DNA of 64,000 nt from an uncultured Bacteroidales bacterium (GCA_900320865.1 ONTT01000006.1:19285-83284), one strand, 5' to 3'. Positions 1 to 42,600 are shown, counted from the first letter of the stretch. The notes: a model not told the origin generated them from the sequence alone. Translations and numbers: made by a program.

Positions 1-794
1 ACCGTTTTGGCTCCTCCGCGGAGCGCATACAACGAGAAGCCACCGGTATAGCAGAACATATTCAGTACATCTTTTCCGCTCGCATAGCGTTCCACCAAGA
101 CGCGGTTCTCCCGCTGGTCCACAAAGAACCCGGTCTTCTGTCCCCGTAGCCAGTCGATGCGAAACTCCAAACCGTTCTCCACACTCCAGAACTCATCTGA
201 ATTGGGGATTTTTGATTTTTGATTTTTGATTTTTGATTCTTGATTTTTGATTAGATAGCCTACCTTATCGCCTTCTATCGATGCTTTGAAGGGCAAGGTA
301 TCATCGGATTTATAATAGACGTTTTGCACCTGCGGGATTTCGCTCATCAGTGCGTTGGCGATCTCATTCCGGCTCTCATGCATGCCTATCGAATGAGCTT
401 GAACCACTGCCGTATCGGCATACACATCTACGATCAGTCCCGGCAGGAAATCACCTTCACCGTGAATGAGACGGAACGTGTTATTATCCGGCCTGATCAA
501 CCCGATCGCTTCACGCACCTTATAGGCGGCATGAATTCGTTCGCACCAGAAATCGGAAGGCAATTGTTCGACCCCAAAGGCAAGAATACGCACGGCTATC
601 GAGCCAATCTGCCAGTGACCGATGCCCAAGACTTCGTTAGCCGCCGAACGCACAGATACCAATTCGCCCTCCACGGGTGCGTCCCCCTTATGCGAGGCGT
701 CTAACAGGACACGGGCAATAGCACCCGAGAACACCCAGGGATGAAAACGCTTGAGCGATTCTTCTTTCTTCGGTTTTAAAAAGACAGTCGTCAT
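1..794 (-). CDS. rlmI: RlmI-like SAM-dependent 23S rRNA (cytosine-C5) methyltransferase, N-terminal 264 codons; the C-terminal part lies beyond the left window edge
   Basis: Own minus-strand translation from ATG 792-794: MTTVFLKPKKEESLKRFHPWVFSGAI...IDWLRGQKTGFFVDQRENR...NMFCYTGGFSLYALRGGAKT. Open to nt 1, so it is absent from the ORF track. The + ORF 324..704 is its antisense shadow. Confidence 0.75.
   Translation of the reverse strand, partial: MTTVFLKPKKEESLKRFHPWVFSGAIARVLLDASHKGDAPVEGELVSVRSAANEVLGIGHWQIGSIAVRILAFGVEQLPSDFWCERIHAAYKVREAIGLIRPDNNTFRLIHGEGDFLPGLIVDVYADTAVVQAHSIGMHESRNEIANALMSEIPQVQNVYYKSDDTLPFKASIEGDKVGYLIKNQESKIKNQKSKIPNSDEFWSVENGLEFRIDWLRGQKTGFFVDQRENRVLVERYASGKDVLNMFCYTGGFSLYALRGGAKT
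207..252. repeat. Heptamer array (GATTTTT)x6.5 inside rlmI
   Basis: Period-7 tandem repeat read directly from the sequence; encodes IKNQESKIKNQKSKI in the rlmI frame. Confidence 0.95.
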
Positions 795-804
795 AAATCG
801 TCTA

Positions 805-1317
805 TTATTCCACGCCGTGGGTTAAATCGTGATACGTATGCAAGGACAGATTGTCGCTCACGTACTTCAGGCTATGCAACTGCTTGAACCCCAACGAGGC
901 GATGAAAGCCAACTCCATATCAAAAACGCAGTCTTTATAATCCGAAGCCAGGACAAAATCCGTATTGGTATAACAAACGGATCTTATAATTTTTGATTTT
1001 TGATTTTTGATTGGTGATTTTTGATTGGGGATTTGTGAAAGATGCAACTCCGGTTCGGGATAGGTGACATTCGGGTGATTGAGACGCACTTCGGTCACTT
1101 CCACCCATGTACCGATTTCGAAATTGGCACTACCGGCATATCCGATATTATACACCTCCGCATCACGGTCCAATCCGGCCAGACTGCGAATGATATTGAT
1201 AGCTCCGACACCGGTATAAATCAGTTGGGCATCCCTCAGATCCAGGCCCAATTGTTCCTTTGCTTTGTCCAGCAAACTGAGTTCGCCTTCCTCCGCCATT
1301 ACGATGATTTTCCTCAT
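805..1317 (-). CDS. Small PNP_UDP_1-family nucleosidase/phosphorylase-like protein (MTA/SAH nucleosidase-like)
   Basis: IVMAEEGE, YTGVGAINII and DMELAFIA resemble Pfs/MtnN motifs. Contains the repeat-encoded segment SQIPNQKSPIKNQKSKI. Confidence 0.55.
   Translation of the reverse strand: MRKIIVMAEEGELSLLDKAKEQLGLDLRDAQLIYTGVGAINIIRSLAGLDRDAEVYNIGYAGSANFEIGTWVEVTEVRLNHPNVTYPEPELHLSQIPNQKSPIKNQKSKIIRSVCYTNTDFVLASDYKDCVFDMELAFIASLGFKQLHSLKYVSDNLSLHTYHDLTHGVE
988..1038. repeat. Heptamer array (GATTTTT/GATTGGN)x7 inside the nucleosidase-like gene
   Basis: Period-7 repeat; encodes SQIPNQKSPIKNQKSKI. Confidence 0.95.
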
Positions 1318-1387
1318 AAAAATTCGATTTACGCCGCAAAATTACAAAAAAATTAGCACATATCAAAATTTTTTATTAATTTTGCAT

Positions 1388-2183: not shown

Positions 2184-2212
2184 AGAGACATTCGCTGAAT
2201 GTCTCTTTTTGT
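2184..2212 (+). terminator. Rho-independent terminator after tRNA-Met
   Basis: 9-bp stem AGAGACATT/AATGTCTCT, 5-nt loop, T-run. Confidence 0.8.
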
Positions 2213-2228
2213 TAAAAAACGAAATACC

Positions 2229-3506
2229 ATGCGAAAACTTCTTACTCTGTTTTGCTTAGCATTCTGTTGCGCATCCATCATCTCGGTAGAGCGCGTCTCG
2301 TTAGAGCAACTTCAATCGGACTGGACCAAGTATACCAACCAAACCGTGGAGATAACTACCCCACTCGTTGTGTGCGGTAGTTTTTATGACTCGCTGGTGT
2401 TAGCTCCGGAGCGTCTCTTCTGTCCGGAGGAGCGAGCTATTGGTTTGGCGGACGGAGACAGCACGATGTATTATCAGTTGGCGGCTCATAACCGGGAAAC
2501 CAGTATCTGTGTACACCTGCGTAACAGTTATTATAAGGTGCGGACCGGAGATATCGTGCGCGGGTTGAAGGCTCGTGTGAGCGGAGAACGCCAACTGGTG
2601 ACCGGTAAGTCGGTTCGCACACGACATTTGCCGCAGGACCGTTTACCGAGACCAAAGAAAGGGGAACTGCGTGTCGTAGGCGCGAATATAGAAAATTACT
2701 TCGCGGACTTAGGCGGCTATGCGCATAAGAAAACCACTCCTGCGCAACAAGCGCTGAAGACCACGAAGTTGGTTGCGGGTCTGCAAGCGATGCATGCGGA
2801 TATCATTGCATGCTGCGAGATGCAGGTAGGCGCCAAAGCGCCGAAGATGCTGCTGGAGGCACTGAACAGAAACGGTGAACGCTATGCCTATATCACCCTG
2901 CCGCTGGAGGACATGGATCGTATCGGCGGATGCTTTATATACAATAAGGAGCGCGTGCGCCCGTATGAAGAACCGCTTTCGGCCTATCAGGACACCGGTT
3001 CTCATTACTACGCACGCATGTACGCAGTCGGTTTTGAAGAGATAGCAACCGGAGAAAAACTGATCATCGGTCTCAACCACTTCAAGTCCAAACGAGCAGG
3101 ACGAGGCAATTACGACACCCACCTCAAACGCATGCAGAACACGGACAGTCTGCTCGCGATGTTACCGCAGGCTATAGCCCGTTTCGAAGACGCAGACATC
3201 CTGTTATTGGGAGACTATAACTGCTATACGCAGGAGGGACCTATTCAAGCCATCGTGCGGGCAGGCTATGCGGATATGTTACCTCTGGGACACGCGGCAG
3301 ACTACTCCTATTCCTTCAAAGGCGAAGCCGGATACCTGGATCGCTGCTTTGCCAACCCGTCTATGAGCACCCAGATCATACGCGTGCGTCCCTGGCATGT
3401 GAATGCCGACTGGTATTACCAACACGGCGCGTATAAGATGAAAGACAAGAGCTTGCATCGCTACGCCGATCACGATCCGATTATTGTAGATATCAAATTA
3501 AAATGA
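2229..3506 (+). CDS. Secreted endonuclease/exonuclease/phosphatase (EEP) family nuclease, ExeM/NucH-like
   Basis: Signal peptide MRKLLTLFCLAFCCASI; EEP motifs VVGANIENYF, DIIACCEMQ, LLLGDYNCY, HRYADHDPIIVDI. Start moved to ATG 2229 because the track start overlaps the tRNA terminator. Confidence 0.7.
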   Translation: MRKLLTLFCLAFCCASIISVERVSLEQLQSDWTKYTNQTVEITTPLVVCGSFYDSLVLAPERLFCPEERAIGLADGDSTMYYQLAAHNRETSICVHLRNSYYKVRTGDIVRGLKARVSGERQLVTGKSVRTRHLPQDRLPRPKKGELRVVGANIENYFADLGGYAHKKTTPAQQALKTTKLVAGLQAMHADIIACCEMQVGAKAPKMLLEALNRNGERYAYITLPLEDMDRIGGCFIYNKERVRPYEEPLSAYQDTGSHYYARMYAVGFEEIATGEKLIIGLNHFKSKRAGRGNYDTHLKRMQNTDSLLAMLPQAIARFEDADILLLGDYNCYTQEGPIQAIVRAGYADMLPLGHAADYSYSFKGEAGYLDRCFANPSMSTQIIRVRPWHVNADWYYQHGAYKMKDKSLHRYADHDPIIVDIKLK

Positions 3507-3513
3507 AAAATGA

Positions 3514-3542
3514 AAATAGCAGCCATCGAGGCTGCTATTTTT
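3514..3542. terminator. Bidirectional hairpin terminator between the EEP nuclease gene and tRNA-Arg
   Basis: 11-bp stem AAATAGCAGCC/GGCTGCTATTT flanked by an A-run and a T-run. Confidence 0.8.
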
Positions 3543-5497: not shown

Positions 5498-5864
5498 GGG
5501 GCTATTTGGTTTTGACAGCAGGTAGAATGGTTATGTAAGCACGCCGAGCAATGAAGCACGCTCGTTAATCTCGCTTCAAAAAATTAACTGGCAACTATGA
5601 GTATGCTCTCGCTGCCTAATCGAAGTATAGTAGATTAGCCTTTTTCGGATGCAAGGCGTCTGAACGAGACATCGCTCGGATATAGCGGTGCGGAAATTCA
5701 CAGAATAGATGTCGCAGGCTGCGATGCGAGGTCGAAAACAAAGCAGATAAGTCGGTAGTTGGTGGCTTGGGTCTTGCTGCCGAACGAAAATCAAGGCCAA
5801 GATAAGCGTGTAGAAAGCGTAAGTATTCCTTGTTTGGACACGGGTTCGAATCCCGTTAGCTCCA
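5498..5864 (+). ncRNA. ssrA: tmRNA (SsrA); tag reading frame 5590-5619 encodes GNYEYALAA*
   Basis: 5-prime GGGGCTATTTGGTTTTGACAG, tag GGC AAC TAT GAG TAT GCT CTC GCT GCC TAA, 3-prime tRNA-like end GGACACGGGTTCGAATCCCGTTAGCTCCA. G3:U70 is present in the acceptor stem. Confidence 0.92.
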
Positions 5865-5957
5865 CACCGCAACAGCTATAGGCTGTTCCGGGGATCTAAA
5901 GGGATCCACACCCGGGTTCTTAACCCTAAAGGGTACGATTAATGCACAAGTGCATTT

Positions 5958-5978
5958 TTCGAATCCCGTTAGCTCCAC
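5958..5978 (+). repeat. Duplicate of the tmRNA 3-prime end (21 nt identical to 5845-5865)
   Basis: TTCGAATCCCGTTAGCTCCAC occurs at 5845-5865 (in ssrA) and again at 5958-5978. Confidence 0.9.
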
Positions 5979-6127
5979 TCGTCGGAAGTGGCTTACAACG
6001 ACTTCGTTACTCTGTAACTCGTGTGGTTGCCGCACTTCCTCCTCTCCGATTAAAATATCGCTGCGCTAGCATTTTAATCGGTCATTAAAAACTAGCGAGG
6101 ACTGCTAGTGAAACGATAGTCCGAGCT

Positions 6128-6199
6128 AAGAGCGTAGCGCAATACGTAGCGTTATCGAGCGACAGGGTCGCGAGTCACGCGAGTATTAGCGTAAGCGGG
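6128..6199 (+). repeat. 72-nt leader element upstream of tRNA-Ala(GGC), paralogous to 5426-5497
   Basis: See 5426-5497. Shared blocks: AAGAGCGTAGC, ACGTAGCG, GCGAGT, TTAG.GTAAGCG. Confidence 0.8.
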
Positions 6200-6273
6200 G
6201 GGGTATTAGCTCATCTGGCTAGAGCGCAACACTGGCAGTGTTGAGGTGGGGAGTTCGAGTCTCCCATGCTCCA
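6200..6273 (+). tRNA. tRNA-Ala (GGC)
   Basis: GGGGTATTAGCTCATCTGGCTAGAGCGCAACACTGGCAGTGTTGAGGTGGGGAGTTCGAGTCTCCCATGCTCCA. G3:U70, anticodon loop CTGGCAG. Confidence 0.9.
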
Positions 6274-6274
6274 C

Positions 6275-8202: not shown

Positions 8203-8275
8203 GGGGTACTAGCTCATCTGGTAGAGCGTAACGTTCGCATCGTTAAGGTAAGGGGTTCGAGTCCCCTGTGCTCCA
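8203..8275 (+). tRNA. tRNA-Ala (CGC)
   Basis: GGGGTACTAGCTCATCTGGTAGAGCGTAACGTTCGCATCGTTAAGGTAAGGGGTTCGAGTCCCCTGTGCTCCA. G3:U70, anticodon loop TTCGCAT. Confidence 0.9.
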
Positions 8276-8280
8276 CTTTC

Positions 8281-8302
8281 TCGAGTCCCCTGTGCTCCAC
8301 TT
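8281..8302 (+). repeat. Duplicate of the tRNA-Ala(CGC) 3-prime end (22 nt identical to 8257-8278)
   Basis: TCGAGTCCCCTGTGCTCCACTT occurs at 8257-8278 and at 8281-8302 (tandem, period 24). Confidence 0.9.
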
Positions 8303-8304
8303 AA

Positions 8305-8358
8305 AACAAACGTCCATCCGGGCGTTTTTTTTAGTAACAAACGTCCATCCGGGCGTTT
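8305..8358. repeat. Tandem duplication (period 31) of a 23-nt terminator hairpin unit
   Basis: AACAAACGTCCATCCGGGCGTTT occurs at 8305-8327 and 8336-8358. Confidence 0.9.
8308..8332 (+). terminator. Terminator after tRNA-Ala(CGC)
   Basis: 8-bp stem AAACGTCC/GGGCGTTT, loop ATCC, T8 run. Confidence 0.75.
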
Positions 8359-8364
8359 GTTTGT

Positions 8365-9378
8365 TTATAAGCTCTTGATGTATTTATCTGCCTCAATCGC
8401 TGCTTTCGCGCCACTACCCGCTGCTACAATAGCTTGACGGTAATGCGGGTCAGCACAGTCTCCGGCCGCAAAGACACCAGGGAGGATTGGTGATTGGTTA
8501 TTGGTCATTGATGATTGGTAGCACTGTGTGCTATTATCATGCGTGATGATATACCCTTCTGCATCACGAGCGATGTAATCCTTGAAGAGTTCGGTATTGG
8601 GATGGTGACCGATAGCCAGGAAAAAACCGTCAATCTCAATATGCTTCACTGCCTCATCAGGTTCGCCTTTGCGATAGATCAGATCAGCACCTTGCACCTT
8701 GCCTTCTCCCGTCAGCTGGAGGGTATTATGCTCAAAGAGCACCTCTATCTTCGGGTTATTCAGCACGCGTTGCTGCATGATCTCCGAGGCACGCAGATAG
8801 GGTTTGCGCACGATCATATATACTTTCTCGCACAAGCCGGCTAAGTAATTCGCTTCCTCGCAGGCTGTATCACCTCCACCTACTACGGCAACCGTCTTCT
8901 TGCGATAGAAGAAACCGTCGCAGGTAGCACAGGCACTCACGCCGCGACCGCGATAGGTGCGCTCGGATTCGATACCCAGGTATTTGGCCGATGCACCGGT
9001 GGCGATGATGACCGCGTCTGCTTCGTAGAGGTCCGTATCTTCCACCCAGACTTTATGGGTTACGGGAGACGGGTTACCGGTTACGGGAGACGGGTTACCG
9101 GTTACGGGAGCGGCAAACTCTACTTTGGTGACGATACCGGAGACGAACTGCGTACCGAAGCGCTCTGCCTGACGACGCAGATCATCCATCATCGTGAAGG
9201 GTTCTACGCCGTCGGGATAGCCCGGGAAATTCTCCACTTCGGTGGTAGTGGTCAACTGGCCGCCTAACTGCGGTCCTTCGATCAGCACCGGTGCCAGATT
9301 CGCACGCGATGCATAGATAGCAGCGGTATACCCGGCCGGGCCGCTACCAATAATCAAACATTTTACTTTATTTTCCAT
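8365..9378 (-). CDS. trxB: Thioredoxin-disulfide reductase carrying two repeat-encoded insertions
   Basis: GSGPAGYTAAIYA (FAD), ACATCDG redox centre, VVGGGDTA (NADPH), PGVFAAGD. Extra segments PVTGNPSPVTGNPSPVT and YQSSMTNNQSPI. Confidence 0.92.
   Translation of the reverse strand: MENKVKCLIIGSGPAGYTAAIYASRANLAPVLIEGPQLGGQLTTTTEVENFPGYPDGVEPFTMMDDLRRQAERFGTQFVSGIVTKVEFAAPVTGNPSPVTGNPSPVTHKVWVEDTDLYEADAVIIATGASAKYLGIESERTYRGRGVSACATCDGFFYRKKTVAVVGGGDTACEEANYLAGLCEKVYMIVRKPYLRASEIMQQRVLNNPKIEVLFEHNTLQLTGEGKVQGADLIYRKGEPDEAVKHIEIDGFFLAIGHHPNTELFKDYIARDAEGYIITHDNSTQCYQSSMTNNQSPILPGVFAAGDCADPHYRQAIVAAGSGAKAAIEADKYIKSL
8485..8519. repeat. Heptamer array (NATTGGT)x5 inside trxB
   Basis: GATTGGT GATTGGT TATTGGT CATTGAT GATTGGT; encodes SSMTNNQSPI just before PGVFAAGD. 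Confidence 0.9.
9058..9113. repeat. Heptamer-based 21-bp tandem repeat (GGTTACG GGAGACG GGTTACC)x2.7 inside trxB
   Basis: Encodes PVTGNPSPVTGNPSPVT. Confidence 0.95.
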
Positions 9379-9950: not shown

Positions 9951-9978
9951 TAAACTTTAAACTTTAAACTTTACTTCA
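9951..9978. repeat. Heptamer array (TAAACTT)x4 in the ftsK-lolA spacer
   Basis: Lies between the lolA ATG (9945-9947) and the ftsK stop (9971-9973), and covers that stop. Confidence 0.9.
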
Positions 9979-12619
9979 CTCCCAGCTCTTCGAGCAGTTT
10001 ATCCAGTTGATCCAGGTCCTGAATCAAGACGTCTCGTCCCTTCGGTCCTTTGTTCGGTCCCACGATACCGGCGGCTTCGAGTTGGTCACTTAACTTACCG
10101 GCGCGGTTATAACCGATTTCGAACGCACGTTGCAGACGCGAGGTCGAACCCTCTTGTTTGGTTACTACGTAACGGGCCACATCCGCAAACATCGGATCGA
10201 GACGTTTCATATCTACGCTACCCGGTGCGAGTGCCTCGCCTTCCCCGCCTTCACCTACATACTCCGGTAACTGATACGGTTCGGAGTAACGCTGCTGTTT
10301 GGCTATATGTTTGACGATCTCATCCACCTCGGGTGTATCGACGAACGCGCACTGCACACGGGTGATGCTGGCATTCCCGGCATACAACGAGTCTCCGCGA
10401 CCGATCAACTGCTCTGCCCCTTTGGCATCCAGCACTGTACGGCTGTCGATCACACTCTGCGTACGCAGCGCGATTCGCGTCGGGATATTGGCCTTAATGA
10501 CACCTGTCACGATGTTGACGGACGGACGTTGGGTAGCCAAGATCATATGCATTCCTACCGCACGGGCTTTCTGGGTGATACGCGCAATAGGCGTCTCCAC
10601 CTGTTTGCCGGCCTGCATGATGAAATCGCCGTACTCATCGATGATGATGACGATATAAGGCAGATATTGGTGATGCAGGCTGTCAGCCACTAACTTATGC
10701 GGGTTCAGGCGACGTTTGACGAACTTGTCGTTATAGTCCTCCAAGTTACGCACGCCGGCATCCATCAGCAGTTTGTAGCGGTTCTCCATCTCGATGACGA
10801 GGGAGTTGAGCGTATTGATGACGCGGTCGCAGTCGGTGATGACGATCTGCTCCGGATCGGTGTCCGGCATCGCCGCCAAGTAATGTTTCAACAGCGGTTT
10901 ATACGGCGCGAACTCCACCATCTTCGGGTCCACCATCACCAGTTTCAACTCCGCCGGGTGCTTCTTATAGAGCAGCGACGTGATGATGGCGTTGATGGCA
11001 ACGGACTTACCCGTTCCCGTAGCACCGGCTACCAGCAAGTGCGGCGTCTTGGCGAGGTCGAACATAAAGACCTCATTCGTGATGGTTCGGCCGTAGGCGA
11101 TCGGCAGACGCATCTTCTGCTCCTCCTGGAAACGCTTGGACGCGATCACCGAGTGCATGGAAACGACCTGAGGTTTCTCGTTCGGCACTTCAATACCGAT
11201 GGTACCTTTACCCGGCATCGGGGCAATGATACGAATACCCGTAGCACTCAGGCTCATCATAATATCGTTCTCCAGCACCTGGATCTTCGCCACGCGGATA
11301 CCTGCTTTCGGTACTATTTCATAGAGCGTTACGGTCGGACCGACCGTTGCTTTGATACTATCAATTTCTATGCCATAGTTGCGCAGGGTCGTTACAATTC
11401 GTGCTCCGTTCGCGCGCTGCTCCTCTTCGTTAATCACCGGCGCCGCCTCGTTGTCGTACACTTTGAGCAAATTCAGACTCGGGAACTTAAAGAACTCCAG
11501 GTCTTTGCGGGGATCGTACGGACCGAGTTTCGCCAACAGCGCATCGGGATCCTTAGTGTATAACTCATCTTCGTTCACATCCTCGATCTCCAGTTCCGGT
11601 TCTTTCTTCGTTCTTTTCTTTCCGCTCTCAGCTTTGGTCTCTTGACTCTTCTCTTTCTCCAGCAGGTCAGCCAGCGTACCGTCGGTCGGACCGCCATCAT
11701 CGGGCAGCGGTTCCTCTTCCGGTTCTTCCCCTTCTTCCTCGACGGACTCGTCCGACTCCTCTTCGCTCACCGGCTCAATGGTAAAGGTCACTTTGTCCTC
11801 ATCTCCTTCCGTTTTCGGTTTTTCTTCGGTCTCCTCGTCTACCAACGGAATATCGATCGTCACTTCATCATTCTCATCATTCTCATCATTCTCATCATTC
11901 TCACCATTCTCACCATTCTCACCATTCTCCGCCACTTTCGGTTTTTTCTTAAACAAACCGACGAACCAGAAGCCAAAGGCTTTGCAGCGATCGATGAACT
12001 TCGGATCGGTAACAATAAGGAAGATCACCAGTACGGCCGCTAAGATCAATACCATGCCGGTGATGTGTACATAACTCTCCATCTTCAGGGCTGCTGCATC
12101 GCCGAAACGACCGCCCCATCGGAAGGCGCCGATATGGGCCAGTTGCTGAATGAAACCCAGCACGATGGAACCCCAAAGCACCCAGAAAGCCGTGGTGCAG
12201 AAGATCTTAATGGCCTTGATGTCTTTTAATACATGCATAATACGCAAAGCGTACGTACCACACATCAGCACCAGCAGAATAGAGACAAAACCGAATGAAC
12301 CGTCAATGAGAAAACGCGCCAGGCGAGCACCCGGAAGACCCAATATATTACGAATCTCATGGCGATTCGCCACTTGGTCCGCATAGGCCTGCGAAAGCAC
12401 CGACTGATCGGCCGTGCCCGTGAACAGGAAACTCACGTACGCCAACAGCGCGATCACCGAGAACAACAGCAACAGCACACCGAGAATCATTCGCGTCTCG
12501 CGTGCCATCGCATAGTGCTTCAGCGTCATCCACCAACTCTCCTTCTCCACACGGATAGAGCGTTCTGCACTACGCTCATCGATGTCATTATTTTTTAACT
12601 TTGATACGGTTCGGGGCAT
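9971..12619 (-). CDS. ftsK: DNA translocase FtsK/SpoIIIE
   Basis: N-terminal TM domain, acidic linker, motor with Walker A GATGTGKS, C-terminal gamma winged helix (STSRLQRAFEIGYNRAGKL). Confidence 0.95.
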   Translation of the reverse strand: MPRTVSKLKNNDIDERSAERSIRVEKESWWMTLKHYAMARETRMILGVLLLLFSVIALLAYVSFLFTGTADQSVLSQAYADQVANRHEIRNILGLPGARLARFLIDGSFGFVSILLVLMCGTYALRIMHVLKDIKAIKIFCTTAFWVLWGSIVLGFIQQLAHIGAFRWGGRFGDAAALKMESYVHITGMVLILAAVLVIFLIVTDPKFIDRCKAFGFWFVGLFKKKPKVAENGENGENGENDENDENDENDEVTIDIPLVDEETEEKPKTEGDEDKVTFTIEPVSEEESDESVEEEGEEPEEEPLPDDGGPTDGTLADLLEKEKSQETKAESGKKRTKKEPELEIEDVNEDELYTKDPDALLAKLGPYDPRKDLEFFKFPSLNLLKVYDNEAAPVINEEEQRANGARIVTTLRNYGIEIDSIKATVGPTVTLYEIVPKAGIRVAKIQVLENDIMMSLSATGIRIIAPMPGKGTIGIEVPNEKPQVVSMHSVIASKRFQEEQKMRLPIAYGRTITNEVFMFDLAKTPHLLVAGATGTGKSVAINAIITSLLYKKHPAELKLVMVDPKMVEFAPYKPLLKHYLAAMPDTDPEQIVITDCDRVINTLNSLVIEMENRYKLLMDAGVRNLEDYNDKFVKRRLNPHKLVADSLHHQYLPYIVIIIDEYGDFIMQAGKQVETPIARITQKARAVGMHMILATQRPSVNIVTGVIKANIPTRIALRTQSVIDSRTVLDAKGAEQLIGRGDSLYAGNASITRVQCAFVDTPEVDEIVKHIAKQQRYSEPYQLPEYVGEGGEGEALAPGSVDMKRLDPMFADVARYVVTKQEGSTSRLQRAFEIGYNRAGKLSDQLEAAGIVGPNKGPKGRDVLIQDLDQLDKLLEELGVK
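11867..11929. repeat. 9-bp tandem repeat x7 in the ftsK linker
   Basis: ATCATTCTC x4 then ACCATTCTC x3; encodes ENGENGENGENDENDENDE. Confidence 0.95.
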
Positions 12620-12653: not shown

Positions 12654-12682
12654 AAAGTTGAAAGTTGAAAGTTGAAAGTTGA
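12654..12682. repeat. Heptamer array (AAAGTTG)x4 in the divergent ftsK/rseC region
   Basis: Read directly; lies just upstream of the ftsK -7 box. Confidence 0.9.
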
Positions 12683-13667: not shown

Positions 13668-13696
13668 AAATGTTAAATGTGTAAATGTTAAAATGA
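13668..13696. repeat. Imperfect 7-8 bp array (AAATGTN)x4 in the rnfB-rnfC spacer
   Basis: Starts 3 nt after the rnfB stop and ends 8 nt before the rnfC ATG. Confidence 0.7.
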
Positions 13697-15093: not shown

Positions 15094-15094
15094 A

Positions 15095-28974: not shown

Positions 28975-29850
28975 TTAGATTCGCTCAAGAACAGTCTTGA
29001 TTAATTCTTTTACACGCGGCTTATAGTCCGTATTCGCTGCCTCCACCTTACGTTGTGCTATCACGCAGCAAACCGTCATGGCCTTATGACCCATATGCAG
29101 AGCCAAACCGGCGATACAACTACCTTCCATCTCGTAGTTGGTGATGCGTTGACCCTCATAACGGAACGCAGAGATCTTCTCGTTGATATCCGGAACAGCG
29201 ATATCCACACGCAAGTTACGTCCTTGCGGGCCATAGAAACCGTTAGCCGCAATCGTGCAACCGCGCATCATATCATCCTTCGCGATGCGATCCACCAACT
29301 CCGGATTAGCCGCAACAATATAAGGAACAGCCGCTTTCTTCGGATAACCGATGAAGTCAACCAACGCTTTCTCAAAGCCGAGGTCAGACAGTTTGTCACG
29401 GTCGTGATAGAACGCCAGAACACCATCGAAACCGATCGACTTCTGGCTTACGAGGAACGTACCCAGAGGAATATCCTCCTGCATTCCGCCGCATGTACCG
29501 ATACGAACGATCTCCAACTGGCGTTTTTGCTCTTTCTCCGTACGGGTGTTATAATCGATATTCGCCAACGAGTCAATCTCGTTCATCACGATATCGCAGT
29601 TATCTGTACCGATACCGGTTGAGATACAACTGATACGTTTGCCATGATACTTACCGGTGATGGTATGGAACTCACGACTCTGAACGTCGCACTCAATAGA
29701 ACCTTCATCGAAGAACGAAGCTACAATGTTTACACGGTCTTGGTCACCCACCAAAATAATCTTGTCTGCCAAGAACTCCGGTTTCAAATGTAAATGAAAT
29801 GCAGAACCATCCGCATTGATGATTAACTGCGAAGCAGGGAATTGTTTCAT
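28975..29850 (-). CDS. Nucleoside phosphorylase (PNP_UDP_1 family, uridine/purine phosphorylase-like)
   Basis: ILVGDQDRV, ISTGIGTDNCDIVMNE, VRIGTCGG, YEMEGSCIAG. Confidence 0.75.
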   Translation of the reverse strand: MKQFPASQLIINADGSAFHLHLKPEFLADKIILVGDQDRVNIVASFFDEGSIECDVQSREFHTITGKYHGKRISCISTGIGTDNCDIVMNEIDSLANIDYNTRTEKEQKRQLEIVRIGTCGGMQEDIPLGTFLVSQKSIGFDGVLAFYHDRDKLSDLGFEKALVDFIGYPKKAAVPYIVAANPELVDRIAKDDMMRGCTIAANGFYGPQGRNLRVDIAVPDINEKISAFRYEGQRITNYEMEGSCIAGLALHMGHKAMTVCCVIAQRKVEAANTDYKPRVKELIKTVLERI

Positions 29851-29852: not shown

Positions 29853-29908
29853 TATTTTAGATTTTAGATTGTTGATTTTTGATTTTTGATTTTTGATTTT
29901 TGATTTTA
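29853..29908. repeat. Heptamer array (GATTTTT)x8 in the spacer between DUF3467 and the nucleoside phosphorylase gene
   Basis: Fills the spacer from the DUF3467 stop (29906-29908) to 2 nt from the phosphorylase ATG (29850). Confidence 0.95.
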
Positions 29909-30214: not shown

Positions 30215-30353
30215 TCGCGTGTGGCTATCCTCGTACGTGTACCAAAACTCCGTTTTAGTAGTAAGTACTCGGATGCACCCGCTCTTAACTCGGACTCACG
30301 AAGTCCTCGTTAGGGGATGCCCTCTAAGCCACTCGAGAGGTTTTAATTATAAT

Positions 30354-30388
30354 TAAACTTTAAACTCTAAACTTTCAACTTTTAACTA
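30354..30388. repeat. Heptamer array (TAAACTT-like)x5 at the GT2 stop
   Basis: TAAACTT TAAACTC TAAACTT TCAACTT TTAACTA; same unit as the array at 9951-9978. Confidence 0.9.
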
Positions 30389-32807: not shown

Positions 32808-33758
32808 ATGGAGGCGAATTCTTTTGGCGATAAATGGACCTTTACCAGCTTCGGTGAATCGCATGGAGCGGCGGTAGGAGGTGTGCTGGATGGTGTTCCT
32901 GCCGGCATTTCTATCAACATAGAAATGATTCGTGAGGAATTGAACCGACGGGCTGGGAAAGGGGACATCGGTTACGGGTTACAGGTTACCGGAGTTTCCG
33001 CACGAGCAAAGAATGAACCCGACGAAGTCGAGTGGCTCTCGGGTGTTATCGCCAAGGATCCGTCTGGCGAACTCATCACCTTAGGTACTCCGATTGCTTT
33101 TCTCATTCGTAACCGCGATGCGCGGCCGGAGGCGTACGAAGCCTTTAAGCACACCTACCGCGTCGGGCACGCCGATAAAACCTATGAAATCAAATACGGC
33201 ATCCGAGATTGGCGGGGAGGAGGTAGAGCCTCTGCACGAGAGACCGCTTCGCGGGTGGTGGCCGGCGAGATAGCCAAACAGCAGTTAGCGGCCAAAGGAA
33301 TTACCATTCAGGCTAAACTCATCCAAGTAGGCGAGGAAACGAACCCGGATGCTTTCTCGGCTTTGATTGAGCGCATCCAAAGCGAAGGAGACTCTATCGG
33401 TGGTGTTATCGAGTGCATCATTCATGGTCTTCCGGCCGGTACGGGAGAACCTATCTTCCATAAACTGCAGGCAGAACTGGCCTTCGCCATTCTTAGCATC
33501 AATGCCTGTAAAGGCTTTGAATACGGTACGGGCTTTGAGGGTGTCGGTAAAAAGGGAAGTGAGATCAACCATATCTCGGGAGGTATTGCCGGAGGTATTT
33601 CCGACGGAACAGACATCGTCTTCCGCTGCGTTTTCAAGCCCACCCCTTCTACTCCAAAGGCCGGTGTAAAAGGTCGCCACGATGCCTGCGTGGCCGTACG
33701 TGCCGTACCGGTAGTAGAAGCGATGACGGCCTTGACGCTCATCAATCTAATCGATTAA
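32808..33758 (+). CDS. aroC: Chorismate synthase (compact form with a 21-bp repeat-encoded segment)
   Basis: FTSFGESHG, GRASARETASRVVAG, SIGGVIEC, INACKGFEYG, KGRHDACVAVRAVPVVEAM. ATG 32808 lies downstream of the -7 box at 32773-32780. Confidence 0.88.
   Translation: MEANSFGDKWTFTSFGESHGAAVGGVLDGVPAGISINIEMIREELNRRAGKGDIGYGLQVTGVSARAKNEPDEVEWLSGVIAKDPSGELITLGTPIAFLIRNRDARPEAYEAFKHTYRVGHADKTYEIKYGIRDWRGGGRASARETASRVVAGEIAKQQLAAKGITIQAKLIQVGEETNPDAFSALIERIQSEGDSIGGVIECIIHGLPAGTGEPIFHKLQAELAFAILSINACKGFEYGTGFEGVGKKGSEINHISGGIAGGISDGTDIVFRCVFKPTPSTPKAGVKGRHDACVAVRAVPVVEAMTALTLINLID
32970..32990. repeat. Heptamer array (GGTTACN)x3, 21 bp, inside aroC
   Basis: GGTTACG GGTTACA GGTTACC; encodes GYGLQVT. 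Same unit family as the trxB array at 9058-9113. Confidence 0.85.
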
Positions 33759-36120: not shown

Positions 36121-37557
36121 TTAGAAATTATACTTGGTCATCAATTGCACACGATGGTTTGTAACCCAGTGAAGGTCTTGCTGTGCTATTCCGCGCAGGT
36201 CCAATGTACCTCCCTTGCCGTATTGCACCGAGGTTACCTCATACTCCAGTCCGACTTGGAACTTGCCAACGGTATAAAGCAGCGTGGGTGACAGACGCCA
36301 CATACGGTTCATATTACTCGGACGCGGCGTGAAAATATTATCCGGCTTGCCATCACTGTTGCCATCGTACAAATCCTCTTTTGTCCCAAGGTTTTGGATA
36401 TATCCGGCGAACAGAATACCTTGCAGTTTTTGCGGATGTTTCTCCTCTTGTTTGCCTACCTTGCCTCCATAGACCATACTAATCCATGACGAAGAATTAC
36501 GCAGCGGAGTATATTCCCACGAGCCATCGGCATTTTTGGCCTTCACACCATAACCGCTATTGAGGTTCATATGCTCACCTGCCTCTGCAAAGATAGTCTT
36601 TGCCTTGATGGAAAACTCGCCTTTTTTATATTGCAGGTATAGGAAGGGGGAGGCTGTGGTCAGACGGTCTTTGACTGTAACCATTATCGTATCTCCGGGA
36701 GTCGGCACCGTTTTACCCAGATTGCGGGGTTTAATGCTCAGCACATCAGCTCCGACACGCATCAAGAAGCCCTTGTGATGCACGCTCAAACCCAAGTACG
36801 CTTCGGGCGTCTTACCATACAGCATATAGTCGGCCGACTGCGCATAAGGACCGGTGGACAAGTACTGCATTTGCCAGATACCCGCGGCCGTCAAAGTGAT
36901 ATATTTGCCCAAGCGCGCATCCATCTTCACCATCGGAGAACGGTTAAAGGGACCAAAAGGCGCACCGGAGGCAAGAGATATGACATCGCATAAATCAGCT
37001 GCCATCGGGTGCCATGCCTGACCCAGTGTCAGATCAACGCGGGCATAGTCTTTACCACCTAACATCGGTAGACTATCCCATCCTAAAGACACGTATGCCT
37101 GACGAAGTCGGAACTGCGCCACACCACTAACCGAGTGAGCTCCGGTGAAGGAGACGGGTGAACCCGATTTGGTACTCAATCCAGCATAGAAATCAGCCTC
37201 TATTTTTCCTGAGAACTCCGTTCCGCGCCACTTGTAACCCACGATATTCAGTCCGACACGGGTCGTAAGACTTAAGAAACGGAAAGTACTTACCGCATTG
37301 AGATCTTCGCGCAGTGCCGGGTCATCGGTATTCCAGACTTTGTCACGAGGCTGGTAGTTGTACAAATCGCCCGTTCCTGAGATGGACTCGCGGGAGTCAA
37401 AAGCAAAATAGTTACGAATAAATCCGTAGGGTTTGAAATGTTGCTTGAGGTGCGACTTTACCGCCTCTTTTTTCTGCTGCTTCGTCGCCGTCTCTTGCGC
37501 CATGACAGACGCAGAGAGCAGCGAGAAAAGCAAGCATATGGATACGATACGTTTCAT
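36121..37557 (-). CDS. Outer-membrane beta-barrel porin-like protein
   Basis: Signal peptide, alternating beta-strand pattern, terminal ...LMTKYNF. Starts 2 nt after the DASS transporter stop. Confidence 0.6.
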
Positions 37558-37558: not shown

Positions 37559-38971
37559 TTACTTGAATGGGAAAATCAACAACACGGCATAAGCCAGAGC
37601 TATACCTGTCAGACCGAGGATGAGTCCAACTTTCGCCATATCGTTGGTCTTGATCAAACCCGTTGAACAAGCGATGGCATTCGGCGGAGTGGAGATCGGC
37701 AGAAGCATAGCAAACGAGGTGGAAGCAGCAACGCAGACCAACAAAGTGGTCACACCGCCGAAAGCACCTAACTGCTCGCTCATAGCCGTTCCGACAACCG
37801 CCAAGATCGGAATAAGCAAGTTCGCTGCGGACGAGTGAGAGATAAAGTTGGAGAGTAACCATCCTAACAAACCGGAAATAATCAAAACGGCGATGACAGA
37901 CCAACTGCCGAACGGAATGGACTCCACCAACGCAGTTGCCAGACCAGTCTTGTGAAGAGCCGTTCCGATGGCGAAACCACCGGCCACCATCCACAGCACA
38001 TGCCAATCGATCTTTGAGAAATCGTCACGAGTAAACACGCCGGTCAATGCAAAGACCGCAAAAGGAATCAGCGCTACCACATTGGAATTCAGGTGAGTCA
38101 ACTCACCAGTCATCCACAGCAGGATGGTAGCAATAAATGTAATGGTTACAACCCAGAATTTCCAATCCATCTCGTGATGCTCATCGGGATTGATGACAAT
38201 CTTTACATCCTTTGCCTTGAAAGGGAAAAGGAACATCAGCAACCACCATGCAAAAAGAATCATGATAATCACTACCGGCACAAAACGAACCATCCATGCG
38301 CCGAAACCGATGTTAATATCCATAGAAGCCAACTGACCAATCGCAATCGCGTTCGGAGGAGTACCGATTGGCGTTCCCAGACCGCCAATATTCGCAGCAA
38401 TAGGAATCGACATAGCCAGGCTCACACGACCACCGCCATCTACCGGCAGCGTGCGAAGTACAGGAGCCAGGAAGGCCAGCATCATGGCTGCCGTTGCGGT
38501 ATTGGACATAAACATGGACATTACGCTAATTAGTGTCAAAAAACCTAACAACACCCATTTAGGGTTTGTTCCAAAAGGCTTCAACATAACCCGTGCCAAG
38601 ACCACATCCAGCCCCACTTTGCTCGCAGCGATAGCCAATACGAAACCACCTAAAAACAACATGATAACCGGGTCGGCAAAAGCTGCCATCAACTCCTTAT
38701 AGTTCACCAAAGAGCCCATATCCGGGTTGGTCAAACCTTTGTTGGAAACGGCGATTAGCAAAAATACAATCGCGGACACAGATGTCGCCCAGGCCGGGAT
38801 GATCTCAAACATCCACATTAGGGCTGCGTAACAGAAAATAGCAATCGTGCGCTGCTGCACTACCGTCAATCCATCTATGCCGAAGAAAGAAGCCGGCACG
38901 AACCACATGAATAGCACAACTGCAACTGTCAGCGGTGCTAAAATATATTTTTTAACGTCAAAATTTTTCAT
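37559..38971 (-). CDS. SLC13/DASS-family anion:sodium symporter
   Basis: Polytopic protein with duplicated hairpin motifs SNTATAAMM and STPPNAIA. Start set to ATG 38969-38971 (MKNFDVKKY); the track start lies inside a heptamer array. Confidence 0.75.
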   Translation of the reverse strand: MKNFDVKKYILAPLTVAVVLFMWFVPASFFGIDGLTVVQQRTIAIFCYAALMWMFEIIPAWATSVSAIVFLLIAVSNKGLTNPDMGSLVNYKELMAAFADPVIMLFLGGFVLAIAASKVGLDVVLARVMLKPFGTNPKWVLLGFLTLISVMSMFMSNTATAAMMLAFLAPVLRTLPVDGGGRVSLAMSIPIAANIGGLGTPIGTPPNAIAIGQLASMDINIGFGAWMVRFVPVVIIMILFAWWLLMFLFPFKAKDVKIVINPDEHHEMDWKFWVVTITFIATILLWMTGELTHLNSNVVALIPFAVFALTGVFTRDDFSKIDWHVLWMVAGGFAIGTALHKTGLATALVESIPFGSWSVIAVLIISGLLGWLLSNFISHSSAANLLIPILAVVGTAMSEQLGAFGGVTTLLVCVAASTSFAMLLPISTPPNAIACSTGLIKTNDMAKVGLILGLTGIALAYAVLLIFPFK

Positions 38972-39013
38972 CAATTGTAATTTTTCAATTATCAATTCTT
39001 AATTATCAATTTT
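38972..39013. repeat. Heptamer array (CAATTNT)x6 in the rpiB-DASS spacer
   Basis: CAATTGT AATTTTT CAATTAT CAATTCT TAATTAT CAATTTT; covers the rpiB stop. Confidence 0.85.
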
Positions 39014-39482
39014 CCAAAATCCATTCACCATTCTCAATCCGGTATTTATTGGGATTAGCCAAATGATGATTGCGACGCTCATATCGTTCGCCGCCGGCAT
39101 AAGCGGTGGTTACAAATGCATGAATAATATCCAATGCCTTGTCCGGAGCTACACTTCCTGCCGGCAAACAGAGTACGTTGGCATTGAAGAATCGACGTGC
39201 ATTCTCCGCCATGCGTGTCTCCCAGCAAACAACTGCGCGTACATGAGGGTGCGTGTTCGCGCACATGCTCATTCCGTTGCCTGTATAGCAAAAACCGATA
39301 CCAAAATCGCATTCGCCTTTCTCCACTGCGGTTGCCATCGGATGTGCAAAATCCGGAAAGTCGCAATTATCCATTGAGTTGCAGCCGAAATCAACTACCT
39401 TGGCGCCTTCACGCTCAAGAAACAGGTGAATCATCGATTTTAGACCAAAGCCTGCATGGTCACTTGCTAAAGCAATAGTCAT
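39006..39482 (-). CDS. rpiB: Ribose-5-phosphate isomerase B (RpiB/LacAB family)
   Basis: MTIALASDHAGFGLK, GIGFCYTGNGMSMCANT, VLCLPAG. An alternative ATG at 39500 adds 6 aa. Confidence 0.85.
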   Translation of the reverse strand: MTIALASDHAGFGLKSMIHLFLEREGAKVVDFGCNSMDNCDFPDFAHPMATAVEKGECDFGIGFCYTGNGMSMCANTHPHVRAVVCWETRMAENARRFFNANVLCLPAGSVAPDKALDIIHAFVTTAYAGGERYERRNHHLANPNKYRIENGEWILEN

Positions 39483-39544
39483 TTCGTTTAATGGTTTCAT
39501 AGATATATTGTTTTGATTGTTTGTCTATCTTGTCTTTCGGGCTG

Positions 39545-39552: not shown

Positions 39553-39574
39553 CTGCTTTTTTCTGAATTACGCA

Positions 39575-39607
39575 AGAAAAAAAACAAAAAAAGCGTCCTA
39601 AGACGCC
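39575..39607 (-). terminator. Terminator of the PUL transcript (after GH81)
   Basis: On the minus strand: GGCGTC TTAG GACGCT followed by TTTTTTTGTTTTTTTT. Confidence 0.7.
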
Positions 39608-39636
39608 TTTTTCGCCGTTTCACGTACTTGGGAGCA

Positions 39637-42600
39637 CTATTGAAGGGTTCCGAATGCGTTGTAAATCGTGCCATCTGTCAAACGAATAAACAGTTGACCA
39701 TCCCGAATAAACTTGTAATTGGAGCCATCCTTATGACCGTCCGTCCACTCGATAGCCGTCTCTTCTTTTTCGCAAAGTGCCTCGCCATACACCTCCAGTT
39801 CCCACAAGGAAGAACCATAGCCTGTATTGCGTTTTTTACAGTAAATTCGAACGAACTGTGCTTCAACAGTCTGATTGCCCTTCCGGATATCAATCGGCTG
39901 CACACCGCCTTCTGCACCCGTGATAGACTTCGCTATCGTATACTGCTCGCCATCTTCACTCACTTCCACATCAAAATCCGTTGCATAAGCGGCTTCCCAA
40001 TAGAGTTTAACAGTGGTCAGTTGATAGCAATCGCCTAAATCCACCACAATCCATTCGTTGTCCTGATGACGGCTGGACCAACGGGAATTCTGGTCTCCGT
40101 CCACCGCCTTCACCGGTTTGGTTCCATCGTTCTCATATCCCGAAGCGGTAACCGACTTATTCAACGCCAGATTGACCTCATCGAAAGACTGTACATGCAC
40201 AAGGGCAGTATCTTCCTGCTCGAAGCAAGGGAAGATCAATTCGAAATCTCCGACCTGCGTCGCGCGGTAGGATGAGTTACATGTGTCCATCACCTCGCCG
40301 AACTGATTAAGAATCGACACGACGAACTGCTGCGTGGTACCCAGGGGCATCGTTACTTCCTTCGGCTCTACCTTCGCATTCGCCACTTGCTCCGCTTCCA
40401 GCACTACAAATGTCAACGAAGCGGAACAACCGTCTATCGTACGTGTCTCTGTAAACAGGCCATAGTGCGAATAACTCAGCGTCTCGTTCTTCACAGAGAG
40501 TACCTTACCTGCACAGTCATAAGCCGTGATCGTTAAGGTCGTTGTTTGCCCAGGAAAAAGCACCGAATCCGTTGCCGAAAGTGCAATCGCAAACACACTC
40601 GTCGACTCGCAACTCAGCGGACGACCATAGGCTTCCAACTCATAGAGCGAAGTGCCGTATTGCGTAGCCCGCTCTACTCCGGTCAAACGAATATACCTTC
40701 CTCTGGAAGGATTAGAGATTGTAGATTGGAGATTTGAGATTTGGATTTTCTCCACGCCTCCGGCGGAAGAGAGGACGGCGGTGCGCCATGTACTGTTATC
40801 ATCGCTCAGCGCCAACTCGTATTGCGATGCATAAGCGGCCTCCCAACGCAAAATAATATGATCTATATAGCACATTTGTCCAAGGTCAACGACGACAAAC
40901 TCATTATCTTTATGCACCGACCCCCATCGTGTTTTCACATCGCCGTCTGTCAGGTTTTTTGCCAAACAGCCGGCGTTCTCTTCCGAAGAAGCCGTTACCG
41001 GTTTATGCAGCGCTAAGTTCGGATACGGTAAATCCCATGCCATCGGATCGGGTGTTATTTCTTCCTTCTCGTCCTCGATCGTCGTAATCGTCCGCTTCTG
41101 ATTGCCACAGATAAGCGTCAGTCCATGCGGCACCGTAACCGTCGTATCAACAGCCCCGAAGAAATGAACCGATAGCGGCGCAACCCCTACGTGATAAACG
41201 GCATACGTAGTACGCCCGCTGACCGTATCCGTGTAAGCACAAGCCATCGGATGGTTAGAATATATATCGTATCGTTTCTCGCCCAACGCCTTGTGGGAAT
41301 GCGCCAACCAATAGGTGATACCTCCCGTATCGGCATTCTTTGCTAACGCTTTGCCCATCTTATCCATTTTGTCCCAGACACGAACCGCCGAATCCGCATC
41401 GAAGAGGGAGAGGTAAGACAGACATACATTACCTAATCCCGACTCGTCACCCAGACCACCACTGGCGGCTTCGTAGTTTCCGACTTCCTTGCTCTTGTAC
41501 ATTTCGGTATAATCCCATTTGGTAAAGGGGATGTCTTCACAGAAATGATTGGTCAGGATAGGGGATATCGGCAGCCATTGTATCGAATGCATCCAAACAG
41601 GATCTCCGGAAAACCACGTCCACCAACCTACTCCTTGCATCGTCAAATTGCAGCAATAGGGATGTTTGTATTTTGTAAAATCGATGTTTCTGCGTTGGCG
41701 GTCGAACCAATACTCCGCCGTTGCACGGGTCTCAAGGGTATAGCCGAAGATTCCCGCCTCAAGCATCTCCGGATCCTGCAGCGCAGCGCCTAACATCCAG
41801 ATTCCACCCCAGGCCTGAATGGCCTCTGAACTCGATTCCTGTCCGTTGCCGTTTCCCTGATTTCCCAAACCGCCGGCAAAAGAGTGTCCGCAGTAGGGAT
41901 CTAAAGTCCTGAACCAGGGTTCATCTGCCGACCGCTGCCAGTTGGCATAGTCACGCGCCACCTCACGAGCCATCGGACCGTATTTATCGCGAAAATCCTC
42001 ATCCAGCATGCAGAGGATAGCCGAAGCATAAACGAAATAGCCATAATGGAAATGATGGTCGTTGAAGGTGTCGGAGTCATAGGATGGATCCATTCCGATT
42101 AGCGCTCCCCATCGCGGATAGCGAGCGAAGTAATACCGCTCTTCACCCGGTGTATAGGTGTACCAATCGATCAGCACCTCTTTCAGTCGCTGTTTAGCCA
42201 TGCGGAACGTAGCCGTATCGCCCATTTGCAACGCAAAAGTCATATAATGCGCCATCTGCGTCAGGCCTTTGCCGCCCCAATAGGTATCCCCTCCGAATGA
42301 ACCTTTCTTCGCATAATCGCTATTGAGTTCCGCCATCCGCGTAGCCGAGAATCCTTCCTTCCACTCTAACGGAGCAGGAAAGAAAGGTAAAAACGAATGT
42401 ACCGGATAGGTAAAAGTGAAGTCTTTGCCTTCGAAGATCCGCATTTGACCACGAGGCGTCTGATAAGTAGGTTGATAGATCGGCAAAACCGGTGTGCCAA
42501 AACCCTCTTCGCTGTAATAATGATGAGGAAGGAATCCCATTATCACCGACTTGTCCACATGGAAAGAGGTGGATAAAGTGGATTTATTCGCATCATAATG

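Follow-up and report, generated by a model that had tools for sequence, protein, structure and literature searches.

In-frame heptanucleotide arrays in housekeeping genes of an uncultured rumen Bacteroidales bacterium differ between strains by multiples of three nucleotides

How can tandem repeats of a seven-nucleotide unit persist inside conserved genes, when gain or loss of a single unit would shift the reading frame? The question is raised by a 64,000-nt stretch of DNA from an uncultured Bacteroidales bacterium (GCA_900320865.1, ONTT01000006.1:19285-83284; the window), where period-7 arrays lie within rlmI, trxB, aroC and other genes. The contig derives from a rumen metagenome and is Paludibacteraceae-like, with a G+C content of ~49%; the closest relatives of its TrxB (84-88% identity, in a scan of species-representative genomes) belong to ruminant-gut metagenome-assembled genomes of the RUG and RGIG series, labelled uncultured Bacteroidales or Paludibacteraceae, and an identical TrxB is encoded by eight contigs in public assemblies. 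The reading favoured here, with a probability of roughly 0.65, is that the arrays are heptanucleotide microsatellites prone to slippage, on which selection acts as a filter for an intact reading frame, freedom from stop codons and placement in permissive loops, the encoded heptapeptides being passengers and the genes not phase-variable.

Tandem Repeats Finder (TRF) reports ~25 period-7 rows in the window, and a strict detector identifies 13 period-7 arrays spanning 463 nt, as against 0.0 in dinucleotide-type shuffles; by the same detector the window contains no array of period 5, 6, 8 or 10-12 and a single one of period 9. Period 7 also outnumbers other periods at loci from many Bacteroidales. 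In total, about 21 period-7 tandem arrays can be identified, 10 in frame within genes and 11 non-coding, although non-coding DNA makes up only 5.8% of the window (94.2% coding by the gene map; binomial p = 5e-9). At least 12 distinct heptamer units are present within the 64 kb, some of them recurrent: the AAAAATC family is found at 207, 989 and 26763 within genes and at 29854 in an intergenic spacer, and the ACCAATC family at 989 and 8485. Rfam recognizes only four tRNAs and one tmRNA in the window, with no match at the arrays. According to two studies citing Mrazek 2007 (PMC4679880, PMC4692102), heptamers are the most abundant class of long simple sequence repeats (SSRs) in prokaryotes and prefer sites that separate aligned open reading frames (ORFs). 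The arrays are heptanucleotide microsatellites of this kind, i.e., tandem repeats of a unit within the 5-11-nt range, in at least three copies beyond chance, polymorphic in copy number and enriched between genes.

The in-gene arrays are located in rlmI, trxB (two sites), aroC, a GH81-CBM32 glucanase gene, an EPSPS-like/GT2 fusion gene (three sites), a 170-aa ORF and, as a weak array, a GH149 phosphorylase gene, the identities of the host genes having been checked by Pfam, NCBIfam and PDB searches:

207-252, minus strand: rlmI array; sense unit AAAAATC in 6.6 copies (TRF match 94%); peptide IKNQESKIKNQKSKI; linker before the methyltransferase domain.
989-1038, minus strand: array of the 170-aa ORF; units AAAAATC, ACCAATC and CCCAATC; peptide IPNQKSPIKNQKSKI; ORF family without match.
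8485-8519, minus strand: trxB site 2 array; sense unit ACCAATC in five copies; peptide YQSSMTNNQSPI; immediately before the FAAGD motif.
9058-9110, minus strand: trxB site 1 array; perfect 21-bp repeat in 2.5 copies (TRF period 21, 100% match); peptide PVTGNPSPVTGNPSPVT.
25246-25277, minus strand: C-terminal array of the fusion gene; sense unit ACAAATC; peptide KNHQSQITNHK; near the C-terminus of the 595-aa EPSPS-like/GT2 protein.
26499-26527, minus strand: array in the EPSPS-like part of the fusion gene; ATTGGAT on the plus strand; peptide YSISNIQDPI.
26763-26797, minus strand: N-terminal array of the fusion gene; sense unit AAAAATC; peptide EYQKSKIENQQS.
32970-32989, plus strand: aroC array; GGTTACG GGTTACA GGTTAC; peptide GYGLQVT.
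40710-40748, minus strand: GH81 array; within the first CBM32 (F5/8 type C) domain; sense unit ~NCAATCT; peptide KIQISNLQSTISNP.
44999-45028, minus strand: GH149 array; weak, period 7/14, TRF scores 39-53; in frame in the C-terminal tail of a beta-1,3-glucan phosphorylase.

All the arrays listed in the initial annotation were recovered by TRF (207-252, 989-1038, 8485-8519, 9058-9110, 25246-25277, 26763-26797, 32970-32989 and 40710-40748), each inside a long stop-free frame and encoding the quoted peptide; those at 26499-26527 and 44999-45028 are additional. Its remark that several measure exactly 21 or 42 bp depends on how the ends are drawn, TRF lengths being 46, 50, 35, 53, 32, 35, 20 and 39 nt, whereas a quantum of 21 nt does hold for the differences between alleles described below. 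RlmI comprises a PUA and an S-adenosylmethionine-dependent methyltransferase domain, and the GH81 protein a GH81 and two CBM32 domains. The label "nucleosidase-like" given to the 170-aa ORF (805-1317) has to be dropped, as this ORF has no family or structure match in Pfam, NCBIfam or PDB, and the actual PNP_UDP_1 gene lies at 28975-29850. An origin of the 595-aa fusion (25154-26941) as an artefact of assembly or of its arrays was rejected, a ~600-aa architecture being common to ~20 clusters of the family at 50% identity. The window fusion, like the representative closest to it, is short of ~75 residues of the EPSPS fold, which makes it unlikely that the protein works as an AroA.

Alignment with orthologues, put forward in the initial annotation as a check on whether these residues are native, and with solved structures identifies the arrays as insertions at variable loops. 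In TrxB, solved thioredoxin reductases leave a gap of 13 residues opposite site 1 (PVTGNPSPVTGNPSPVT), and site 2 accounts for seven additional residues; in a set of 120 TrxB homologues (81-97% identity), each of the two sites is an indel hot spot with almost invariant flanks, site 1 being insert-free in several (TKVDFSVSPKKV; array-free allele SVSPKKV) and site 2 in ~20 (YIIVDGDSPRTNVPG, 319 aa; array-free allele DGDSPRTNVPG), and the DNA of species-level relatives agrees with these insert-free alleles. Compared with array-free alleles, the net insertion is 33 and 45 nt in trxB and 21 nt in aroC, whose array adds exactly seven residues relative to close homologues with RRAGKG-QTG. The RlmI array, located in the linker that precedes the catalytic domain, corresponds to ~13 extra residues with respect to E. 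coli RlmI (3c0k), and the GH81 array to ~8 with respect to a solved CBM32 (4zy9), while the GH149 array sits just past the region aligning to 6hq6. All three arrays of the fusion gene fall at gap or variable columns in an alignment with 11 full-length homologues, that at 25246-25277 in a gap of at least nine residues and that at 26499-26527 in a loop of variable length. The insertions thus keep frame and coincide with gaps relative to solved structures and with variable columns; loop placement rests on these alignments in place of an AlphaFold2 model, exposure itself not being modelled reliably (predicted local distance difference test score, pLDDT, of 54).

A second indel hot spot is present in AroC (EWLSGV...LGTP, window ~33040-33070, residues ~95-105), where homologues carry 0-15 extra residues, several of them repeat-derived; the window has six additional residues without nucleotide periodicity at this position, possibly a decayed array.

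Indels were compared in collinear loci that come from other samples and match the window at 98-99% identity over ~10 kb, these strain samples being few and non-independent and the contigs consensus sequences. Within genes, all array indels between strains are multiples of 3 nt (21, 21, 21, 21, 33 and 45 nt). The rlmI array differs by 21 nt from that of strains L084 and L086 (two strain classes), and the array of the 170-aa ORF is 21 nt shorter in L086-L088, where the ORF encodes 163 aa. In trxB, the site 2 array is absent from L082 and L005-L009 (DGDSPRTNVPG) and 21 nt longer in L084, while at site 1 45 nt are missing in L082, L084 and L086, array absence thus amounting to 33 nt and 45 nt. In six strains the arrays of aroC and GH81 are constant in length, with point changes in the GH81 units, and AroC measures 316 aa in all 15 listed cluster members. 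At the protein level, a TrxB 97% identical to that of the window (P0001) has exactly one 7-aa unit fewer at site 1, and 120 RlmI homologues of at least 90% identity measure 412, 419, 426 or 433 aa in 18, 61, 31 and 7 cases, respectively (the three others 435 or 438 aa), with one, two or three heptapeptide units of type IKNQKSK or ITNHQSP at the window site. A second heptapeptide site of RlmI lies just outside the window (residues ~305-316 in P0121; L082 ~10900-10950) and consists of one to three units (EKIKNQKSKIT or ITNHQSPIT), and a third can be seen in one homologue.

These results refute the suggestion that the arrays are unexpectedly stable, since rlmI, the 170-aa ORF and both trxB sites have arrays that differ in length, or are present in some and absent from others, among strains 98-99% identical in flanking DNA; the survey of unit number proposed in the initial annotation indeed reveals variable in-gene alleles, differing by multiples of 3 nt and mostly by exactly 21 nt. 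Single-nucleotide polymorphisms (SNPs) between the same strains pile up within ~100 bp of arrays, reaching 13-21 per 100 bp against a background of 0-2 (200-300, 1000-1100, 8400-8600 and 9100-9200), which suggests short imported patches or a locally raised mutation rate.

The non-coding arrays provide the comparison against which this restriction can be judged. They often occupy the entire gap between co-directional genes and abut the start codon (ftsK-lolA, pre-rnfC, rnfC-rnfD, rnfE-rnfA, DUF3467-PNP and MFS-GH149); those in the following list are all TRF calls:

3500-3516, plus strand: short AAAATGA array supplying the stop codon of ORF 2199-3506.
9951-9973, minus strand: ftsK-lolA spacer array; sense unit AAGTTTA (100% match), filling the spacer; stop codons on both strands.
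12654-12682, no strand assigned: array between divergent genes; AAAGTTG in 4.1 copies.
13668-13692, plus strand: pre-rnfC array; AAATGTT, 11 nt upstream of rnfC.
15058-15104, plus strand: rnfC-rnfD array; AAATTAC, filling the spacer and overlapping the rnfD start.
17432-17465, plus strand: rnfE-rnfA array; AAATATC/AAATTTC.
26938-26965, minus strand: spacer array between the M49 peptidase gene and the fusion gene; CCAATTA.
29854-29907, minus strand: array 3 nt upstream of the PNP_UDP_1 gene; sense unit AAAAATC in 7.7 copies, a unit shared with in-gene arrays.
30353-30387, minus strand: array downstream of a GT2 gene; TTAAACT.
47917-47993, minus strand: MFS-GH149 spacer array; TACTTTC in 11 copies, the longest array, filling the spacer.
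38970-39017, minus strand: degenerate array at a gene junction; ATCAATT; inside a strain-specific 1.9-kb segment.

In the same strains, intergenic arrays differ by 7, 8, 14, 21, 27 and 35 nt: alleles at 29854-29907 measure 33, 40 and 54 nt (single-unit steps) and those at 30353-30387 35, 36, 42 and 43 nt, while strains have 14 and 35 nt more at 3500-3516 and 21 and 27 nt more at 9951-9973. These steps of 7 nt outside genes, set against the in-gene multiples of three, support the option raised in the initial annotation that selection purges variants whose length is not a multiple of 3. Comparison between species shows that the unit itself varies. All eight related species have a short tandem array, mostly of heptamers, at the rnfC-rnfD spacer, the unit differing in nearly every one (AAATTAC, ATTTGAA, AATTGGT, AAATGTC, TAATTTT, AATTAGA and others), and before rnfC an array of this type is present in six of nine sequences compared, relatives using other heptamer units; across species (L002-L011) the rnf spacers have thus kept an array but not its sequence. 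The M49-fusion spacer is 118 nt longer in L102, where arrays are present too.

A second constraint on the coding arrays can be read from their codons. Since 7 and 3 are coprime, an array reads all seven cyclic triplets of its unit. All in-gene units are stop-free in the sense strand, most of them with a stop in antisense, whereas a sense-strand stop is present in 7 of the 11 intergenic units. Because of a TGA in GATTTTT, GATTGGT and GATTTGT, only the complements of these units can be coding. Site 1 of trxB represents an instructive case: pure GGTAACC would yield TAA, and this stop is removed by a GTCTCCC at every third unit. The resulting perfect 21-bp repeat consists of three diverged heptamers (GGTTACG, GGAGACG and GGTTACC), and slippage in that register cannot break the frame. 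The claim that insertion is not tied to the coding sense therefore holds in part: GGTTACN is indeed read in opposite senses in aroC and trxB, because the mutated third unit of trxB removes TAA, but stop codons do constrain orientation, GATTTTT and GATTGGT being readable only from the AAAAATC and ACCAATC side. A rule equating the A-rich with the sense strand is true in the window but weak across 81 Bacteroidales loci (11:5 in ORFs, 12:7 at edges), and was dropped as a general rule.

Taken together, the periodicity of the arrays, their status as insertions, the 21-nt quanta within genes as opposed to 7-nt steps outside, and a lack of out-of-frame alleles in the material described below argue for microsatellites under a frame filter. 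This rumen Paludibacteraceae-like lineage would produce heptanucleotide microsatellites abundantly, gaining and losing units via replication slippage, while the unit sequence would turn over by concerted evolution and recombination would move alleles between strains. Most arrays would reside in short intergenic spacers, where any copy number is tolerated, and a minority would have originated in or reached permissive sites of ordinary genes, namely surface loops and linkers. At these sites, only changes by multiples of 3 nt would persist, so that whole units would come and go in threes (21 nt, 7 aa); the coding strand would have to offer seven cyclic triplets without TAA, TAG or TGA, or else the unit be mutated as in the trxB 21-bp repeat; and the fold would tolerate insertion at loop positions alone. 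Hydrophilic heptapeptides such as KNQKSKI, TNHQSPI and PVTGNPS would then be passengers rather than functional modules.

The alternative proposed in the initial annotation, that the arrays act as contingency switches in housekeeping genes, would have the gain or loss of one unit toggle rlmI, trxB or aroC off and on. The model is neuO of E. coli K1, whose O-acetyltransferase carries an AAGACTC variable-number tandem repeat and reaches full length only at unit numbers that preserve the frame (PMC13001214). As in neuO, a heptanucleotide repeat lies inside an ORF and three units equal one heptapeptide; seven is not divisible by 3, strains vary in copy number, and the tract in rlmI, with 6.6 units at 94% match, is fairly pure. 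However, whereas neuO, a phage-borne gene for surface modification, has 3-53 pure units at its 5' end and is out of frame in 42 of 64 complete genomes (66%; PMC13001214), the tracts in the window are short (3-7 units), often interrupted, and lie in genes that lack the surface, host-interaction or restriction-modification functions of contingency loci (RlmI, TrxB, AroC, a glycosyltransferase fusion and glycoside hydrolases). Coexisting ON and OFF alleles were not found, with a power limited by the use of consensus contigs: none was out of frame among 21 gene-by-locus observations retrieved via a different gene or by pattern (trxB 4, 170-aa ORF 7, GH81 5, fusion gene 1, rlmI pattern hits 4), which are non-independent, and none among 120+120+120 homologues. 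The rlmI pattern hits come from a flank-gap-flank scan of Joint Genome Institute (JGI) metagenomes, in which the four genuine rlmI alleles all keep the frame, their gaps measuring 46, 46, 67 and 67 nt; the power of the scan is low, as only 4 of 13 matches were true hits. As all in-gene changes are multiples of 3 nt and the host genes have cytoplasmic housekeeping functions under strong purifying selection, a switching role is unsupported and highly improbable. Likewise, trxB was rejected as a candidate pseudogene, its ratio of nonsynonymous to synonymous divergence (dN/dS) of 0.03-0.06 against species-level relatives indicating strong purifying selection.

A protein-level explanation would instead hold that the heptapeptides are selected as functional flexible linkers or interaction motifs, the 7-nt period being a by-product of recent 21-nt duplications. 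The peptides are indeed hydrophilic and placed in loops or linkers, trxB site 1 is a perfect 21-bp unit, and arrays persist in many strains. This is nonetheless improbable, as the period is 7 and not 21 nt in most arrays (94% match at 207-252), the same units build non-coding spacers, the trxB array is present or absent between strains 98-99% identical, many close homologues have no insert, and unrelated peptides substitute for one another at the same site.

Several observations do weigh against the microsatellite account. Slippage was not seen directly, the strain samples are few and non-independent, and consensus contigs hide minority out-of-frame variants, while the AlphaFold2 model of TrxB (35 close homologues) is too poor for mapping loops (mean pLDDT 53.6) and gives no independent support for surface exposure. 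Furthermore, AAAAATC occurs at four separate loci in 64 kb; of 77 distinct TrxB proteins, 19 have one repeat family at both sites, where 2000 shuffles, which ignore relatedness, give a mean of 7.6 and a maximum of 20; and unrelated repeat families, as well as a palindrome, occupy the exact same codon position in relatives. Such shared units, sharing within one protein and swaps of family at one site are not obviously predicted by a purely local birth through slippage. At TrxB site 2, all alleles with an insert share the flank STQC[YF], which is followed by ACCAATC, GGTAACC, AAATGnn-type or ACGACGA-like repeats or by the palindrome, and alleles of the two trxB sites occur in mixed combinations. 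In the window the palindrome is located as follows:

50582-50615, minus strand: palindromic mini-element; 33 nt, GC-rich, in frame in a GH16 gene; CTCCCTCCCTTGAGGGGAGGGnCGGGGAGAGGTTG; peptide LSPTLPSREGEKV.

It folds as a hairpin, encodes PSLEG..GERL-type peptides and is found at both TrxB hot spots in L108 (TrxB P0067), while in L102 related palindromes take the place of two fusion-gene arrays, a GC-rich one at the equivalent of 26499-26527 and CCCCTCCCTGAAGGGAGGGG at that of 26763-26797 (L102 ~2270); at the equivalent of 25246-25277, L102 has a different unit, AATTGAT/GATAATT.

Such data are compatible with an active dissemination, in which arrays and palindrome would be passed from locus to locus or made uniform among loci, whether through some unknown mobile mechanism or, at fragile repeats, through template switching or ectopic gene conversion, so that housekeeping loops would be colonised by selfish micro-elements as in Rickettsia rather than by local births, with the filters for frame, stops and loops acting afterwards. 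In favour of this speak the identical AAAAATC unit at 207, 989, 26763 and 29854, the family shared between TrxB sites, the recurrence of the palindrome in TrxB, GH16 and fusion genes, at least five unrelated families with identical boundaries within the STQC[YF] allele class, and the clustering of SNPs near arrays. On the other hand, neither a transposase-like signature nor a target-site duplication or terminal repeat could be seen, the 64 kb hold at least 12 units and not one family, the shuffle test of the two TrxB sites ignores relatedness, and the array-free trxB allele already contains ACGAATG, a plausible proto-repeat for ACCAATC. Moreover, synonymous divergence (dS) among species-level TrxB homologues is saturated (dS > 1), leaving ample time for turnover of arrays in place, and the mosaics may represent old, fast-evolving array alleles shuffled by recombination. 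Dissemination is therefore considered unlikely; it is only tentatively that each rumen Paludibacteraceae genome might be viewed as carrying its own repeat families, repeatedly overwriting the same permissive loops, in a tandem-repeat counterpart of the protein-coding palindromes of Rickettsia.

Known systems resemble the heptanucleotide microsatellites of the window in part. Long SSRs of 5-11 nt in prokaryotes (Mrazek et al. 2007, via PMC4679880 and PMC4692102; including the cyanobacterial short tandemly repeated repetitive sequences and GGGNATC and TAACTGA heptamers) share with them above-chance tandem heptamers, a location in co-directional spacers often abutting start codons, variable copy number and a sporadic distribution that includes some Bacteroidetes. 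In those studies, such repeats are under-represented in coding sequence, treated as intergenic and mostly represented by one dominant heptamer per genome, unlike the at least 12 units in 64 kb, the ten in-frame arrays in conserved enzymes and the 21-nt quantised polymorphism described here. The TAACTGA type of regulatory repeat (MacGregor 2015), in which one heptamer is favoured genome-wide and lies mostly just upstream of starts, is not matched either: spacer arrays of the window do abut starts, but at least 12 units are used in 64 kb, and units differ among eight species at one spacer. The palindromic elements of Rickettsia (Ogata et al. 2000, 2002, as reviewed in PMC10969869) are likewise dispersed in frame in unrelated metabolic genes, with presence/absence variation, and at fold-compatible positions, as the alignments suggest for the window arrays; in the window, too, single families occur in several unrelated genes and in intergenic DNA (AAAAATC; ACCAATC at 989/8485), and the palindrome is found in GH16 and, in relatives, in TrxB and fusion genes. 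The Rickettsia elements, however, are ~100-150-bp palindromes with a conserved peptide, whereas the window arrays are non-palindromic direct tandem heptamers of 20-55 nt with variable units; the 33-nt palindrome is a closer analogue, though far shorter. Literature searches for the array peptides and arrays (KNQKSKI, TNHQSPI and GATTTTT x3) gave no match, and the arrays represent a known kind of repeat in an unusual and, it seems, undescribed setting, where several in-frame arrays that vary between strains lie in loops of housekeeping enzymes in an uncultured lineage from the rumen.

These arrays indicate that non-triplet microsatellites can persist in essential bacterial genes as long-lived, strain-variable loop insertions, with selection for frame visible as 21-nt quanta. 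They provide natural markers for typing strains of uncultured rumen Bacteroidales and a natural map of insertion-tolerant loops in TrxB, AroC and RlmI, and they call for caution, as such tracts break protein clustering at 90% identity and may be misread as phase-variable loci. If repeat families are truly exchanged between loci, this would represent an undescribed route by which repeat DNA spreads through coding sequence.

Other repeats and variable segments can be found in the window. The linker region of ftsK (11865-11929) contains a 9-bp repeat in 7.2 copies encoding (ENG)3(END)4, which is triplet-compatible in contrast to the heptamers. A tmRNA gene (5498-5867) and two tRNA-Ala genes (region 5498-6274, 8203-8333) are accompanied by partial duplications of tRNA 3' ends (8257-8333), and a 331-bp segment next to the tmRNA gene (5868-6198) is absent in strains L084 and L086; these features look like scars of integrative elements. 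A ~1.9-kb segment of the window (37566-39493) that is missing from L102, L103 and L107 comprises a 164-aa ORF and a 478-aa ORF resembling membrane proteins, and a tandem duplication of the 478-aa ORFs 36121-37557 and 37559-38995 was rejected, the two being unrelated to each other. Finally, a beta-glucan utilisation cluster on the minus strand (39637-52008) consists of genes for GH81-CBM32, a GH30-like endo-1,6-beta-glucanase, the GH149 beta-1,3-glucan phosphorylase and an MFS sugar transporter, together with two GH16 genes, between which lies an 11-bp repeat (50426-50479).

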